Assembly (NCBI GenBank): GCA_964360815.1
Contig: CAYHYA010000001.1
Location: 5,574-69,573 of the forward strand
Direction: 5' to 3'
Length of the DNA stretch: 64,000 bases
Source of the DNA: an uncultured Candidatus Saccharibacteria bacterium
Lineage (GTDB): Bacteria > Patescibacteriota > Minisyncoccia > Phycocordibacterales > JACOZG01
The notes under the pieces are model-generated. The model was given only the letters and a program-made list of their open reading frames with translations, was not told the DNA's origin and did no database searches. The translations under genes were made by a program, and so were the position numbers. Shown here piece after piece: positions 16,724 to 55,326 of this stretch (position 1 is the first letter of the stretch; every line of letters starts with the position of its first letter).

Positions 16724-18169
16724 CTAATTCCCGATTTGGAAAATCCCCGACCCGCCGTAAATCGTTTCGCCGTTGACCACCGTGGAGAGACGGAACCAGT
16801 AAGAACCAGGTGTAATCGAGGCGAAAGCCACATTTTTACTACCAGTGTTCTGATTTAAGGAAGGAGTAAAATTACTAACTAATTGGTTATTGGGCGTCAT
16901 CAGTTCGACTCGAATTAGATTGCCATTGGGGACATTACTTGATGTCCAAGTCACCATTTTGGGCGAATCGGCCTGACGCCAAAGATTGTTCGCCAACGGG
17001 GCTGTCACATTGATCGAGGCGGTGGTTTGAGCTGGCGGCGGATTAGTACACTGGGTCGTATTGAGAGTGCAACTACCACTACAAATTAGAGAACCGAGAG
17101 AGTAACCATAAGAACCGCAAGTCAACGAACCGAAATTGTTGCCATCACATTGTTCTCCACCTTCAATTAAACCGTTACCACAAGTAGTCGCGGGCGGCGG
17201 CGGAACGGAAGTCGGAGCGGCGGTAAATTGGAAAATCCCCGACCCGCCGTAGATGTTTTGCCCGTTAACGACAGTGGAAAGACGGAACCAATAGGCGCCA
17301 GTCGGCAAACTGGAGTTGGTCAAACGACCAGACTCAACGCCGTCGTTTGCGGTAGTGAAATTAGAAAAACCAGTGGCCGGCTGATTGTTGGGGGTCCAGA
17401 GCTCAACCAAAATCGTGTTGCCGTCTGGAATGTTTGTGTCCGACCAATAAATCACCGGTCCGTTATTCACCGTCCATGAGCTGTTAGCCGGCGGCGAAGA
17501 CACATTGATCGTGACGGGACCAGGAGGAATCGGAGGTGAGGGTGGTGAAGTGAAATCGTTGCCGGTACTACCGCTTGCCGGCAGACAACTGTTCGAGAGT
17601 AAGTTGCCGTTCGGGCAAACAGAAGTCGAAGAGGGTGAACTGGCGGTAATGGTGAACCAGCGACTCCAACCGGTGATGGTCTCGCCGTTAACCGTAGTGG
17701 TGATTCGGACGCGATATTGGCCCGGCGCGGGCTGACTGTTCAAAACAAGGTTCTGCCGGCCGTCGTTTATAGTATTGAGAACACTTGTCGCACCGGTAAA
17801 TCTATCGGCCGAATTTAAAACTCGGACATCAACTAATGTTTCTGGCGGTAGGTCTTGACTCCACCACCGTACCGGCAATTCCGATCCGGCTTCATAACTA
17901 CCACCGCCCGGTACCGTGACGGTGATACTGGAGGTGGTGGTGGAATTATTAATGCTGGTTGAAATTCGTTGACCGATTGCTTGTCCCTGTAAAACTAGCA
18001 ACTGTTGTTGAAGTTGGGCGATCAAAGCATTGAGCTGGCTGATCAGTTGTTGCAAATAAGCCGCTGAGATGTTTTGCGTCTGCGCTTCGACTGGAGGTAA
18101 ATTGATAAAACCGATCGAGACGATAATTAATAAAAGACTAACAAAAACAAACCTTGATTTTCTATTCAT
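16724..18169 (-). CDS. Secreted repeat protein with three ~95-aa beta-domain repeats, a Myxococcus-type cysteine-rich repeat (CGNGxxExGEQCDxG) and the CPNGNLLSNSCLP motif
   Basis: Signal peptide MNRKSRFVFVSLLLIIVSIGFINLPPVEAQ. Internal repeats end ...YWFRLSTVVNG(Q/E)(N/T)IYGGSGIFQ. The DNA repeats at 16738..16803 and 17230..17296 were read directly. Confidence 0.55.
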   Translation of the reverse strand: MNRKSRFVFVSLLLIIVSIGFINLPPVEAQTQNISAAYLQQLISQLNALIAQLQQQLLVLQGQAIGQRISTSINNSTTTSSITVTVPGGGSYEAGSELPVRWWSQDLPPETLVDVRVLNSADRFTGATSVLNTINDGRQNLVLNSQPAPGQYRVRITTTVNGETITGWSRWFTITASSPSSTSVCPNGNLLSNSCLPASGSTGNDFTSPPSPPIPPGPVTINVSSPPANSSWTVNNGPVIYWSDTNIPDGNTILVELWTPNNQPATGFSNFTTANDGVESGRLTNSSLPTGAYWFRLSTVVNGQNIYGGSGIFQFTAAPTSVPPPPATTCGNGLIEGGEQCDGNNFGSLTCGSYGYSLGSLICSGSCTLNTTQCTNPPPAQTTASINVTAPLANNLWRQADSPKMVTWTSSNVPNGNLIRVELMTPNNQLVSNFTPSLNQNTGSKNVAFASITPGSYWFRLSTVVNGETIYGGSGIFQIGN

Positions 18170-18182
18170 GGTCCCAATTCTA

Positions 18183-18191
18183 CCCCCCCCC
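18183..18191. repeat. Homopolymeric C9 (G9 on the coding strand) tract 21 nt upstream of the start codon of secreted repeat protein 16724..18169
   Basis: Read directly: tacccccccccctgaatt. Confidence 0.8.
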
Positions 18192-18215: not shown

Positions 18216-18259
18216 TTGACAACCGAAAATCGGTCGAGTATGTTTATGATATTATCATA
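18216..18259 (+). promoter_or_regulatory. parDE promoter (TTGACA, 17 nt, TATGTT) with an overlapping 15-bp palindrome TATGATATTATCATA, the likely ParD operator
   Basis: Read directly, 16-60 bp upstream of the parD start codon at 18275. Confidence 0.45.
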
Positions 18260-18274
18260 TTAAATTATAGTACT

Positions 18275-18499
18275 ATGTCTACCTTATCCGTCCCCCTGTC
18301 GCCCACCCAAGAAGAATTTATCAAGAACATGGTCAAATCCGGTGCGGCGGCCAACAAGGCCGACGTGGTGCGCAAGGCCCTTAAACTGCTGGCCGAAGAA
18401 GAGGCCGTGATGACCGTGCTCAAGGCCGAGGAAGAATTTCGTCAGGGTAAATATTTCACCGGTGACCTAGAAAAAATCATTAGGAAATTTCCCGGCTAA
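18275..18499 (+). CDS. parD: ParD/RelB-type ribbon-helix-helix antitoxin
   Basis: SVPLSPTQEEFIKNMVKSGAAANKADVVRKALKLLAEEE matches the ParD consensus. Its stop overlaps the toxin start (ATGA). Confidence 0.65.
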   Translation: MSTLSVPLSPTQEEFIKNMVKSGAAANKADVVRKALKLLAEEEAVMTVLKAEEEFRQGKYFTGDLEKIIRKFPG

Positions 18500-18762
18500 T
18501 GAACTACTATTACGCGCCGTCATTCTTAAGGCAACTTAAAAAACTTGATCCAGCCATTCAAGCTGAAGCCATCGAAAAAATAAGTTTATTTAAAACCGGG
18601 GACTATGGTCGGCAACTAAAAGTTCACAAGTTAAGTGGTTGGCTAAATGATCGCTATAGTTTTTCTGTTGATTATCGCGTTCGAATCGTTTTCACCTACG
18701 TACACAAAAGAAAAGGTATCCTTTTTGTCGCAATCGGTGACCACGACGTGTACAAAAACTAG
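18499..18762 (+). CDS. parE: RelE/ParE-family toxin
   Basis: 87 aa. YRVRIVFTYVHKRKGILFVAIGDHDVYKN matches the C-terminal RelE/ParE signature. Confidence 0.65.
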   Translation: MNYYYAPSFLRQLKKLDPAIQAEAIEKISLFKTGDYGRQLKVHKLSGWLNDRYSFSVDYRVRIVFTYVHKRKGILFVAIGDHDVYKN

Positions 18763-32581: not shown

Positions 32582-33601
32582 CTAGATCGAGCCAAAAGAC
32601 AAAGAACGCAAAAGATGCTGGCGTATTTTGTGTCCACGACAATGCTTTAGCACACCTAGATACGAAGTAAGATTGGCGGGAGTGATCTCGTCCCGATCCA
32701 ACCGCCGTAAAATGCGCCTTTTGGTCCGCGTTCGCAAAACTCGATAATGCGGCCGGGCGACGTACCCCAGATAATCAATTCCTTGGTGCAACTTACGAAT
32801 GATAATTTTGTCGGGATGCAAAGAAAGATTTAATTTGTTTTTCAAAAAATCAGAAATTGGCCAAATCAGGTTTTCTAAATAATCACGGCTTTGATGGACG
32901 ATGACAAAATCATCACAGTAACGCAGGTAATATCTGGCCTTAATTTCGTGTTTAATAAATTGATCAAGTTCGTTGAGATAAATGTTGGCAAAAAGCTGAC
33001 TGGTTACATTGCCCAGCGGTAAGCCACAACCAGGGATGATAGCGAAGCTCTCAACGACCGATCGAATTAGAGTGATAACACGGCTATCACCGATTACCTT
33101 TTCAATCAATGACAACAAGATAGCATGATCAATATTATCAAAAAACTTTTGAACATCACATTTTAAGGCGTAGCTTTGTGAATGATAATTACCACTGATC
33201 TTGCGAACAAAGGATTCTAGACGACTTACTCCACGATGCACTCCTTTGTTGAAGCGACAAGAATACGAGTCGTAAATAAAATGCCGATCAAAAAAATGGT
33301 ACAGTCCACGGAAAAGTGCTTGGTGTAGAACTCGGTCGAGCACCGGGGCCTTGTGGATATGACGTATCTTTGGGTCCCGAACGTAAAAAGATTGGTAGGA
33401 GGAGGGATGGTAAGCGTCGGAGACCAGATCAGCATGAAGTTTAAACAAATTATTTTCTAAATCGAACCCGAACTCCAAAACTTTGATTTTTTTGATTTTG
33501 CCGCGCTTGAATTCTCGCCAGGCATTGAGTAAATTAGACAGCGACACAACATGCTCCCACAACGACCAAGTAGACCCCCCCCCAACAGATTTCCTTGCCA
33601 A
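32582..33601 (-). CDS. Diversity-generating retroelement (DGR) reverse transcriptase
   Basis: RT motifs 1-7 with YCDD. Motif 4 reads LGNVTSQ, the DGR-specific [ILV]GxxxSQ that replaces QGxxxSP. 339 aa. The cognate TR and VR lie directly upstream. Confidence 0.8.
   Translation of the reverse strand: MARKSVGGGSTWSLWEHVVSLSNLLNAWREFKRGKIKKIKVLEFGFDLENNLFKLHADLVSDAYHPSSYQSFYVRDPKIRHIHKAPVLDRVLHQALFRGLYHFFDRHFIYDSYSCRFNKGVHRGVSRLESFVRKISGNYHSQSYALKCDVQKFFDNIDHAILLSLIEKVIGDSRVITLIRSVVESFAIIPGCGLPLGNVTSQLFANIYLNELDQFIKHEIKARYYLRYCDDFVIVHQSRDYLENLIWPISDFLKNKLNLSLHPDKIIIRKLHQGIDYLGYVARPHYRVLRTRTKRRILRRLDRDEITPANLTSYLGVLKHCRGHKIRQHLLRSLSFGSI
33575..33583. repeat. Homopolymeric C9 (G9 on the coding strand) inside codons 7-9 (GGG) of the DGR reverse transcriptase
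   Basis: Read directly: tagacccccccccaacag. The minus strand atggcaaggaaatctgttGGGGGGGGGtct encodes MARKSVGGGS. Confidence 0.8.
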
Positions 33602-33939
33602 TTGTTCATCAGTTAGGAGAATTATATAAGCATGTTTACCAAATTGGAAAGAAATTAAGTAAGGGCGACAAACTCGGCGTTTGGTCTAAAATAGAAATAG
33701 TGTGTTTGGAATGTCTTGAATTATCGATCACGGCCAGCTTGTTGCCATTAACATCAAAAACAGAGCCGCTTCGGCGATTAGGGTTAAAAATAGAAGTGAT
33801 GAAAAGGTTGATTAGGTTGTGTTGCGAAATTAAGATCATTGAAGATCGGGTTTATTTATGTTTAACTCAACCGTTACAGGAAATTTCCAAGATGACAGCT
33901 GGCTGGTACAAATACGCCAACCAAAAAGAGCGCCCTTAA
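33595..33939 (+). CDS. Possible Avd-like four-helix-bundle accessory protein (23S-rRNA-IVS family), encoded divergently from the RT
   Basis: ELYKHVYQIGKKLSKGDKLGVWSKIEIVCLECLELS resembles the IVS/Avd helix-1/2 pattern. The orientation is opposite to the TR and RT, which lowers confidence. Confidence 0.3.
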   Translation: MPIVHQLGELYKHVYQIGKKLSKGDKLGVWSKIEIVCLECLELSITASLLPLTSKTEPLRRLGLKIEVMKRLIRLCCEIKIIEDRVYLCLTQPLQEISKMTAGWYKYANQKERP

Positions 33940-33957
33940 GACGCCCCGTTTTGGTAA

Positions 33958-34076
33958 CACTACCTCACGAGTCCGACCATTCGGGTTGGCGTCGTCGCGA
34001 TTCCACCAATTGATCTTGAACTGTCTATCGTTCCAGTTGGCGTAGACGGCCTTGCCATCAGAGTTACGCGAACTCG
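33958..34076 (-). repeat. DGR template repeat (TR), 119 bp, Asn-codon (AAY) rich
   Basis: Aligns without gaps to VR 34352..34470. 13 of 15 differences fall at TR adenines (coding sense on the minus strand). The track's ORF 33874..34176 most likely just spans this non-coding TR. Confidence 0.8.
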
Positions 34077-34339
34077 CGTAGTATCCTTTCCCATCCATTC
34101 CACCGGCAATCTTAAAGTAAAATTGCCTGCGTTGATCCCGTGGTGTGGGGCAAAGTTTGCGGCCTGGTCTTATCAATCCTTACCGCCAGGAAAAGACACG
34201 CAGTGCTATTTAATCTTCTTGGCAAATCGTTATTCCGTGAACGGAACCGATTTATCAGCCGGGTTAAATTTTACAAATAAAAAAATCACCGCGCAACTCA
34301 ACAAAGAGACACGCGGTGATCTAGGATTAAAGGAAGAAG

Positions 34340-35143
34340 TTACGAGTTTAGCACTACCTCACGAGTCCGACCATCCGGGTGTGCGCCGTCGCGAAGCCAC
34401 CAACCGACCTTGAACTGTCTACCGTCCCAGTCGGCGCCGACGGCCCTGCCATCAGAGTAACGCGAACTCGTAATGGTCACGTTAATTAGGTCGAGATGAC
34501 CGCCCTCGATTTTTTGGTGGTGCAATGCTTCCAACAACATCCGCTCGCCAATGGTTGAGTATATAAGGCCACGTTGATCGAGTTGGTCCGGCGAAAGATT
34601 GGAGTATTCTTCACTTGGTTCCACCGCCCCTTCGGTCCAGAGAGCATAAACACTCTCTGGCCGAGGTTGGTTTATGGTAACGGCCTGATCGAGATTTTTC
34701 GTGTAACGAAAACACGGAAAAGCGACTTCGTTAACGCGGTAAATTTGATCGAGCGACAAGTTGGGGTCAACGACGAGTAGCGTTGGTTGCCGAAACCTAC
34801 CTGTCGGCAGGGTCGGCACGGTCAGTTTGTTCAAATCTATTCGTCGTTGGTGCTGATCAAGATAATATTGTTCCCACCACTCGAGATCGTTACCAATATT
34901 GACAGCATCGTCAGTCGCACCGATTAAGAAATTACCGACCCTTCTCTGCCATTCTCTTTTTTCCTTGACCAGTTTTTCGGCCTGATCAAAATCTATCGTT
35001 ATCGGCATCGCGTGAACCAAAGCACTGCAAATTTCCCTCGTTTGACCGAACGTCATCGGTTTCTTAACCACCGCTGGAACAGTACCGCTTTTACTCATGG
35101 TCAGTTTCCTTTCACTTAATTCAAAGACCCCGGCTAAAGGCAC
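34340..35143 (-). CDS. DGR target protein (variable protein); the C-terminal ~40 aa are encoded by the VR
   Basis: C-terminus ...SSRYSDGRAVGADWDGRQFKVGWWLRDGAHPDGRTREVVLNS compares with the TR-encoded SSRNSDGKAVYANWNDRQFKINWWNRDDANPNGRTREVV. No signal peptide was detected. Confidence 0.7.
   Translation of the reverse strand: MPLAGVFELSERKLTMSKSGTVPAVVKKPMTFGQTREICSALVHAMPITIDFDQAEKLVKEKREWQRRVGNFLIGATDDAVNIGNDLEWWEQYYLDQHQRRIDLNKLTVPTLPTGRFRQPTLLVVDPNLSLDQIYRVNEVAFPCFRYTKNLDQAVTINQPRPESVYALWTEGAVEPSEEYSNLSPDQLDQRGLIYSTIGERMLLEALHHQKIEGGHLDLINVTITSSRYSDGRAVGADWDGRQFKVGWWLRDGAHPDGRTREVVLNS
34352..34470 (-). repeat. DGR variable repeat (VR) at the 3' end of the target gene
   Basis: See the TR entry. 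The final ~21 nt (ggtcggactcgtgaggtagtg) are identical to the TR, including its adenines, which is consistent with an IMH-like unmutated end. Confidence 0.8.
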
Positions 35144-39661: not shown

Positions 39662-40309
39662 TTAATTTAGTGTTTTGATGATTTTGTTCCAGAAATCGCG
39701 TCCACGTCTGAACCAATCTCGTCGGCGGAGAACAGCAACACTCGCTCCCAACAGAGAGAGGGTTCCTGGTTCCGGAATCGGCGTGCCGCGGAGAACAAAA
39801 GAATCAAATCCCATTCGATCGCCAGCGGAGGAAAAATCTCCGATTAGACGAAAAGCGAAATTAGGATTATCGCTGGCTTCCGGCGGCAGGGCCAGAGATT
39901 CTAAAATCCAGTCGCTTTCGTTCATGTTCGTGTAGAAAGCAAGTGGTTTCCAATCTTTCGAATCGGGGGTCCACTCAACTCGCATCACGTCATCAATCTC
40001 GAGCGCCCCCCTAACCTGTTCGGCAAACTCCAAAATCAAACCATGAAAGCCGACCGTGGAAATTTCAAGAAGCAGCGTGCCGTCCGGCCCACCACTTATT
40101 CCACTAAAGTCGGCGCCCCAGTCTCCCTCGAAGGCCGCCGCATCAGACGAGATAAGTTGCCATCGCCCATTAGCACCGGTCCATCGATCAAATGCTTGAT
40201 TGGGGCCGCTGATTTCGAATCCATCCTCGAATAGAATATCGGCCGAAACCCCCCCCACCATCAACAGAGGTAAGAGTAAAACCAGTCGCGACTTTCTTCT
40301 TCCACCCAT
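39662..40309 (-). CDS. Secreted protein with C-terminal PEP-CTERM sorting signal
   Basis: Signal peptide MGGRRKSRLVLLLPLLMVGGVSA. C-terminus IPEPGTLSLLGASVAVLRRRDWFRRGR is PEP followed by a TM helix and an Arg-rich tail. Confidence 0.55.
   Translation of the reverse strand: MGGRRKSRLVLLLPLLMVGGVSADILFEDGFEISGPNQAFDRWTGANGRWQLISSDAAAFEGDWGADFSGISGGPDGTLLLEISTVGFHGLILEFAEQVRGALEIDDVMRVEWTPDSKDWKPLAFYTNMNESDWILESLALPPEASDNPNFAFRLIGDFSSAGDRMGFDSFVLRGTPIPEPGTLSLLGASVAVLRRRDWFRRGRDFWNKIIKTLN
40249..40256. repeat. Homopolymeric C8 (G8 on the coding strand) in the signal-peptide codons of the PEP-CTERM protein
   Basis: Read directly: gaaaccccccccacca. The minus strand gtgGGGGGGGtt encodes VGGV. Confidence 0.8.
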
Positions 40310-54756: not shown

Positions 54757-55326
54757 TTACGGGAGAAACTGAAGCAGGAACCATTGTCTCGACGTGTCAG
54801 AGGAAAAAACCGAGATAACCTGATAGGTTAATGTATCATCAAAAAACGTGTCCACCATGTTGGTTGGGATATTATCTATGTTTTCTACTGTACCCATCAG
54901 AGCAACCTTGTAATCTCGACCCTGCGAATCTGTTTTGTACCAGTAACCCAAATCCGGATTACTGGATGGACCAGAGGGGTCAGCGGGTCTGGGGTCTAGA
55001 TATTGAGATATCGCCGCTAGTTTATTGGGGTCATGGTAATCGTTGTTCGTGGTGGGGCAATCCCAACAATCAAGTCCGGCTGACGTTATTTCGGTTCCGC
55101 CAATAAAAATATCATCTGGATAACGACCATAATCTGTCTTATACAACTCCAACGCGTTTCTTAATTGAATTAAGTCCTGCACACGTTTTGAGTCGCGGGC
55201 TTTGGCCCGGGCTTGGGCGAGGGAAGCAAACACAATGCTCGACAAAAGGGAGATAATCGCGATGACGACTAAAATTTCGATCAGCGTGAACCCCCCCCTC
55301 TTTTCTGTTCGTTCTGTGTTCTTCAT
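54757..55326 (-). CDS. pilA: Type IV major pilin (PilA/GspG-like)
   Basis: RGGFTLIEILVVIAIISLLSSIVFASLAQARAKARDSKRVQDL matches the GspG/PilA consensus. The leader contains a G8 tract. Confidence 0.7.
   Translation of the reverse strand: MKNTERTEKRGGFTLIEILVVIAIISLLSSIVFASLAQARAKARDSKRVQDLIQLRNALELYKTDYGRYPDDIFIGGTEITSAGLDCWDCPTTNNDYHDPNKLAAISQYLDPRPADPSGPSSNPDLGYWYKTDSQGRDYKVALMGTVENIDNIPTNMVDTFFDDTLTYQVISVFSSDTSRQWFLLQFLP
55291..55298. repeat. Homopolymeric C8 (G8 on the coding strand) in the prepilin leader of the major pilin gene, immediately before the G/F cleavage site
   Basis: Read directly: gtgaacccccccctctt. The minus strand agGGGGGGGGttc encodes RGGF. Confidence 0.8.

Follow-up and report, generated by a model that had tools for sequence, protein, structure and literature searches.

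Genes and features at the locus

The window (the whole 64,000-nt stretch of DNA analysed, to which all positions refer unless another contig is named) encodes on its minus strand a secreted protein of 481 amino acids (16724..18169), whose ORF opens at the first ATG after an in-frame TAA. The protein has a signal-peptide-like N-terminus (MNRKSRFVFVSLLLIIVSIGFINLPPVEA/QTQ), a coiled-coil-like Q/L-rich segment, about four Ig-like repeats and a Cys-rich CGNG..GEQCDG segment, and internal DNA repeats (D7 and D13) lie within the gene. No Pfam family was found for the protein itself. The only homologue found, the syntenic orthologue P0003 from locus L004 (43% identity), also has a signal-peptide-like start, aligns its N-terminus with the 481-aa protein at the ATG, and matches the Kre9_KNH Ig-like, PG_binding_1 and InlB B-repeat families. 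Given the signal peptide, the internal repeats and the domain matches of the orthologue, the label of a secreted repeat protein used in the initial annotation is a fair description of the predicted product. Across the window, 50 of 58 long ORFs lie on the minus strand.

Divergently transcribed from this gene are a ParD-like ribbon-helix-helix (RHH) antitoxin of 74 aa and a toxin-like ORF of 87 aa (18275..18762, plus strand), for which a promoter scan placed TTGACA-17-TATGTT at 18216..18244 on the plus strand. The divergent intergenic region spans 105 nt, and palindromes fit for RHH operators are found at 18226-18262. The toxin-antitoxin cassette is missing at the corresponding position of the orthologous locus L004, and the region between the glycyl-tRNA synthetase (GlyRS) gene and the 481-aa gene has been remodelled by insertions.

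Between the two divergent genes lies a homopolymer of nine bases, C9 on the plus strand at 18183-18191 and therefore G9 on the strand of the secreted-protein gene. Sequence inspection and its recovery in four assemblies bear out the initial annotation of a poly-G9 tract in the 5' control region of this gene. Read on the minus strand, the order of elements is TTGCCC-gctaattcaG9-TAGAAT-tgggacc-ATG. The -10 hexamer TAGAAT (18182-18177), identified by promoter scan, ends 7 nt before the ATG (18169-18167), and its position predicts a transcription start at the ATG or 1 nt before it (within 18167..18170). The -35-like hexamer TTGCCC (18206-18201) lies 18 nt upstream of the -10 hexamer and has 4/6 matches, which is suggestive only; TTGnnn occurs at a spacing of 16-19 nt at 8.5% of positions by chance, so the match is weak. 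G9 makes up the last nine positions, that is, the 3' half, of the 18-nt spacer between TTGCCC and TAGAAT and directly adjoins the -10 hexamer. Its location within a promoter, abutting the -10 box of a predicted leaderless gene, is well supported by these motifs, which also suggest the -35 assignment of TTGCCC and the start of transcription. TTGCCC stands back-to-back with the -35 box of the toxin-antitoxin promoter, 9 nt apart, and the tract lies 25 nt outside the latter box.

This anatomy departs from the one proposed initially. The tract had been placed 21 nt upstream of the ATG, a figure that is correct when counted from the first G; the actual gap is 13 nt (18182..18170, TAGAATTGGGACC) and consists of the -10 box plus 7 nt. 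It had also been placed between a likely promoter and a ribosome-binding site. No Shine-Dalgarno (SD) sequence is present in these 13 nt, the -10 box occupies them instead, and the candidate elements TTGCCC and TAGAAT flank the tract, so the promoter is not wholly upstream of it. Because the tract lies inside the promoter spacer, a change in its length would alter the -35/-10 spacing rather than the promoter-to-start spacing that had been suggested. A second promoter-like site (TAGACA-16-TATGAT, 18281-18254, minus strand) does occur upstream of G9 and overlaps the start codon of the antitoxin gene, which is read from the other strand. The tract leader gave no Rfam match, and its predicted RNA fold was not significant (z = -1.9).

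Predicted leaderless promoters in the window

The spacing between the -10 box and the start codon recurs across the window. About a quarter of the window genes (15 of 59) lack an SD and have a -10-like hexamer that stops 5-9 nt short of the start codon, a hexamer position expected by chance in about one gene. This geometry is the signature expected of leaderless mRNAs. Since the 481-aa gene shares this geometry, its mRNA is predicted to be leaderless as well; by motif geometry only, it shows both features of the leaderless type, the absence of an SD and a -10 box located about 6-9 nt before the start. The next gene downstream has a near-identical TAGAATTGGGCC-ATG, and the promoter of the L004 orthologue reads TATAGT-8 nt-ATG. 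SD-led genes are a minority in the window and carry AGGAG 6-8 nt upstream of the start. The counts imply widespread leaderless transcription in this Parcubacterium, of which the present locus would be a clean sequence-level case, and this bears on how gene starts are called in these genomes.

The leaderless-type promoters also offer a guide to the role of the -35 box. Four of the 15 combine a TGn extended -10 motif with poor -35 boxes, and a -35 match of at least 4/6 was found in 6 of the 11 promoters without TGn, as against 16% in the background. This suggests that -35 boxes matter in the TGn-less promoters of this genome. A G run at the position of the tract is absent from the other promoters of the window, so it is not a general promoter element.

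Copies of the tract

Identical G9 tracts with identical flanks were recovered from three further independent assemblies (L001, L002 and L003), giving four copies in all; L001 is 99.9% identical to the window and aligns with no gaps. These three assemblies come from replicates R1-R3 of the 0.1-µm fraction of Hainich aquifer well H51 and are consensus sequences at 3-4x coverage. The tract was G9 in 4/4 available copies, all of them consensus assemblies from one well at only 3-4x coverage, so the length heterogeneity that had been proposed as a check has been tested weakly. Look-ups by exact protein (the 481-aa protein, cluster members and the antitoxin) returned the same four contigs only, all with G9, and no further copies emerged when metagenome contigs were scanned with a flank-anchored DNA pattern of variable gap length (0 matches). 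GlyRS-anchored scans of genome and metagenome collections showed that the nearest relatives, with GlyRS identities of at most 77%, are Parcubacteria/Paceibacterota metagenome-assembled genomes (MAGs). The tract is absent from the promoter of the L004 orthologue. Among near-identical locus pairs of relatives, the homopolymer indels detected were three A/T indels only, and no pair was informative for G/C.

Long G tracts at gene starts

The lengths of G/C runs in the window are bimodal, with 38 runs of length 5, two of length 6, none of length 7, two of length 8 and two of length 9. A first-order Markov model expects 1.6 runs of at least 8 per window, and the four observed are not significant by this measure (P = 0.07). 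The same model overshoots the medium runs, expecting 18 of length 6 and 4.6 of length 7 compared with the two and zero found, or about 23 runs of 6-7 compared with 2. Relatives provide an empirical baseline: in 81 loci of related Parcubacteria (1.36 Mb), runs of length 6 to 10 number 117, 15, 4, 1 and 2, which amounts to 0.33 runs of at least 8 per 64 kb, and against this rate four in one window is significant (P = 4e-4). All four are G on the sense strand, are no more than 60 nt from a start codon and fall within its -25..+65 zone, which covers 8.3% of the window (P about 5e-5). No other class of simple repeat stands out in the window.

The four runs are located in the promoter of the secreted Ig-repeat gene, the leader of a type IV pilin with an N_methyl motif, the signal peptide of a PEP-CTERM-like protein and the 5' end of a diversity-generating retroelement (DGR) reverse transcriptase (RT) gene, all on the minus strand. 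In the pilin-like gene (54757..55326), G8 (55291-55298) encodes R-G-G just before FTLIE of the N_methyl motif, and a one-base change would truncate the pilin; the gene adjoins T2SSE/T2SSF pilus-assembly genes. The gene for the 215-aa PEP-CTERM-like protein (39662..40309) is preceded by a normal AAGGAG SD, and its G8 (40249-40256) covers signal-peptide codons 18-21. Neighbour-gene look-ups found G8 or an intact ORF throughout at these two loci in other assemblies: the PEP-CTERM-like tract is G8 in three of them, including a Logan run assembly, and an uninterrupted pilin reading frame in R1-R3 implies that its tract is G8 there too. The pilin gene is broken in Logan contigs, at places that differ between them, consistent with low coverage and not with a tract bubble.

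In the RT gene, G9 (33575-33583) encodes Gly-Gly-Gly in frame if TTG 33601 is the start, and lies 12 nt upstream of a divergent Avd-like ORF. G10 is found at the equivalent place before a similar RT in two other Parcubacteria (L005:6942-6951 and L017:11394-11403; ...ENLYEAWQEF.. and ..ANLLEAWKEF..), and the L005 tract is also G10 in two more assemblies (L088 and L102). Because it is conserved across species, the RT tract may switch the DGR itself by frameshifting, or it may serve as a functional element of the DGR. The DGR is complete (32582-35143), with the RT at 32582..33601 (minus strand), the bAvd-like ORF at 33595..33939 (plus strand), and a template repeat (TR, 33955-34076) and a variable repeat (VR, 34349-34470) that are 86% identical over 122 nt; the VR is located at the 3' end of a 267-aa ORF (34340..35143, minus strand).

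The window thus has an excess of long simple sequence repeats (SSRs), clustered where surface-associated genes begin, as in a contingency repertoire, and the four tract-bearing products, a pilin, two secreted proteins and a DGR RT, are typical contingency targets. We tentatively propose, at somewhat less than even odds, that the Ig-repeat promoter, the pilin leader, the PEP-CTERM-like signal peptide and the RT 5' end form a small poly-G contingency repertoire by which the bacterium would stochastically switch its cell surface and its own DGR.

Similar promoters in other Parcubacteria

In about 2.1 Mb of DNA from related Parcubacteria there are ten non-redundant G/C runs of at least 8, three of them directly upstream of a -10 box in promoters unrelated to the present one. 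These are G9-TGG-TATAAT in L056, before a gene for an autotransporter-repeat-like protein with a signal peptide in the slot downstream of GlyRS; TTGCTA-8 nt-G10-T-TATAAT in L162, before a gene for a signal-peptide protein; and C9-ATGT-TATAAT-6 nt-ATG in L118, before a gene for an M16-type peptidase. With the window counted, 4 of 14 long tracts lie within 0-4 nt of a -10-like hexamer, compared with 3.8% in the background (P = 0.0016). The tracts of L056 and L118 precede an extended -10 motif (TGnTATAAT). Extended -10 promoters in Escherichia coli depend little on -35 spacing, and for this reason a spacing mechanism is less obvious in these two cases.

Other features were seen in these sequences. 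In L056, several copies of a GAAACGACGTTTC-type palindrome occur in the intergenic stretch that separates GlyRS from the promoter with G9 (L056:11330-11600). A conserved block beside the L118 tract was considered as a non-coding RNA and rejected, as it is the N-terminal coding region of the M16-type peptidase. In another Parcubacteria MAG, a G8 (L075:20122-20129) lies in the N-terminal coding region, at about codon 15, of what looks like recA (…KTVGGADKKIEDAIAAIKTKFGDDAIMKLGE…).

A candidate promoter-spacer contingency tract

The reading that we favour, with a probability of about 0.5, is that G9 acts as a promoter-spacer contingency tract for a predicted leaderless gene, which encodes a secreted surface protein with Ig repeats, in a member of the Parcubacteria (Patescibacteria/CPR). 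Slipped-strand mispairing of the 9-nt G run at replication would add or remove one G, giving a -35/-10 spacing of 17 nt with G8, 18 nt with G9 and 19 nt with G10. The change in spacing would turn transcription of the surface protein up or down, heritably and reversibly, much as in porA of Neisseria meningitidis, from a start at or beside the ATG, 7 nt downstream of the -10 box. We infer a useful slippage rate and length-dependent expression, and switching by the tract is unproven. In this respect the initial annotation was sound in kind, as transcriptional phase variation through promoter geometry is the best reading of the tract.

A somewhat unlikely alternative is that the spacer is static, with G9 merely tolerated or neutral, perhaps left by the toxin-antitoxin insertion, and slippage no more than rare noise. 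It would account for the constancy of G9 in all four assemblies, for an orthologous promoter in L004 that does without the tract, and for a Markov P of only 0.07, and the remodelling of the GlyRS-to-gene region by insertions would supply an origin. However, the genome purges G/C runs of 6-7 yet keeps four of 8-9, all at gene 5' ends; long tracts adjoin -10 boxes in three other genomes (P = 0.0016); and toxin-antitoxin homologues elsewhere lack a tract, so that it did not arrive with the cassette. The same homologues, found in L017 and L068, led us to reject G9 as a part of the toxin-antitoxin cassette, and they also weaken the proposal that the G run is a regulator site or a shared element of the divergent control region, such as a toxin-antitoxin upstream element or operator, read for its sequence and not its length. 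The 105-nt divergent region with its back-to-back -35 boxes lends itself to such an element, and the 'variable combined promoter' of Haemophilus influenzae hifA/hifB offers a precedent (van Ham 1993, as cited in PMC5084427), but the tract is separated from the toxin-antitoxin -35 box by 25 nt and falls outside the core of that promoter, and the RHH-operator-like palindromes are at 18226-18262 and not at the tract. We regard this proposal as improbable. A role of the tract as a DGR element was also rejected: the DGR of the window is 15 kb away and targets another gene.

Three further explanations were weighed. The tract might be transcribed as part of a 5' untranslated region, between an upstream promoter and the ribosome-binding site or as a G-rich SD in itself, so that its length would alter promoter-to-start spacing or translation initiation. 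The promoter-like site TAGACA-16-TATGAT upstream of the tract, the possible pairing of GGGGG with the anti-SD CCUCC through one G-U pair, and the leaders of about 45 nt in the tract-bearing promoters of L056 and L162 all speak for this arrangement. Nevertheless, it has little probability in our view: no AGGAG-like SD follows the tract, which ends 13 nt upstream of the start compared with 6-8 nt for AGGAG, and these 13 nt contain a -10 box at the standard leaderless distance of the genome; the distance from the 3' end of the tract to the ATG is unaffected by tract length; the leader has neither an Rfam match nor a significant fold (z = -1.9); and TAGACA-16-TATGAT overlaps the start codon of the antitoxin on the opposite strand. 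A translational switch can be read directly from the sequence, in that G8 would bring TTG 18206 in frame and add 12 residues (MPANSGGGRIGT). With G9, though, the TTG frame stops at TAG right after the tract, TTG 18206 has neither an SD nor a promoter, and both the canonical signal peptide and the N-terminus of the orthologue start at the ATG, all of which makes such a switch very improbable. As it stands, G9 is not within a reading frame in the manner of translational frameshift tracts, as there is no in-frame start codon upstream of the ATG. A sequencing or assembly artefact, such as the poly-G of two-colour chemistry, has only the low 3-4x coverage in its favour and is close to negligible for an internal G9 with unique flanks on both sides that is the same in four assemblies.

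Comparison with known phase-variable promoters

The closest counterpart of the promoter-spacer contingency tract is porA of N. meningitidis, in which 11G separates the -35 and -10 boxes and gives high expression, 10G lowers surface expression 2-fold and 9G 13-fold, and length variants arise at about 2e-5 (PMC3639595). In both cases a homopolymeric G tract lies in the promoter spacer of a gene for an envelope protein, and in porA one-base changes give graded expression (PMC3639595). The porA-type features at the sequence level, a tract of at least about 8 nt and its location in the spacer, are found here, the latter with a -10 box for which genome-wide geometry speaks strongly and a -35 box backed by a 4/6 motif match only. 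The present case differs in that the -10 box is 7 nt from the ATG and the gene is predicted to be leaderless; that the organism is a groundwater CPR bacterium and not a mucosal pathogen; and that the tract has nine Gs in a predicted 18-nt spacer.

Other systems are less similar. The poly-C tract of N. meningitidis opc (Sarkari 1994, cited in PMC5084427), the fim poly-C of Bordetella pertussis and the intergenic poly-G tracts of Campylobacter (PMC1891110; PMC8355987) are likewise promoter-region G/C homopolymers of surface-structure genes within genome-wide contingency sets. In these systems the tracts are longer or are placed upstream of the promoter core, and experiments have demonstrated switching, whereas the present set is four candidate tracts in only 64 kb. 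H. influenzae hifA/hifB (van Ham 1993, cited in PMC5084427) resembles our locus in its divergent setting and in having a simple repeat (TA) in the -35/-10 spacer. According to that citation the hif repeat is common to both overlapping promoters, whereas here the tract lies only in the promoter of the secreted-protein gene.

Our literature searches found no report of homopolymer or SSR phase variation in CPR/Patescibacteria. Their only case of local hypervariation driven by repeats in a CPR genome is a hypervariable 9-mer repeat gene of a Gracilibacterium, which has in-frame coding PTD repeats with read-level variation (PMC6851277) and is neither a homopolymer nor a promoter switch. The promoter-spacer tract is thus probably a known mechanism in a lineage in which none was found described, set apart by its CPR host and its leaderless promoter.

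Implications for surface variation in CPR bacteria

The current view of CPR/Patescibacteria is that they live on the surface of host cells, which they contact through pili and surface proteins, and discussion of how this interface varies has centred mostly on DGRs. G tracts prone to slippage at the start of surface genes would give these tiny genomes a second and cheaper means of variation; of the tracts described here, one is within a promoter and one is at the DGR RT itself. If the proposed repertoire is real, it would be the first SSR-based phase variation described in CPR and in a non-clinical ultra-small episymbiont, and at promoters it would use a leaderless architecture in which the tract adjoins the -10 box.

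We also note a 91-nt element near the start of the window, present in two copies that are 91% identical (159-249 and 949-1039). In each copy a TGTGGTATAAT-like promoter box precedes a terminator-like hairpin (CCCCCGCCGTGAAGCGAGGG), and the element may be a small repeated intergenic cassette.
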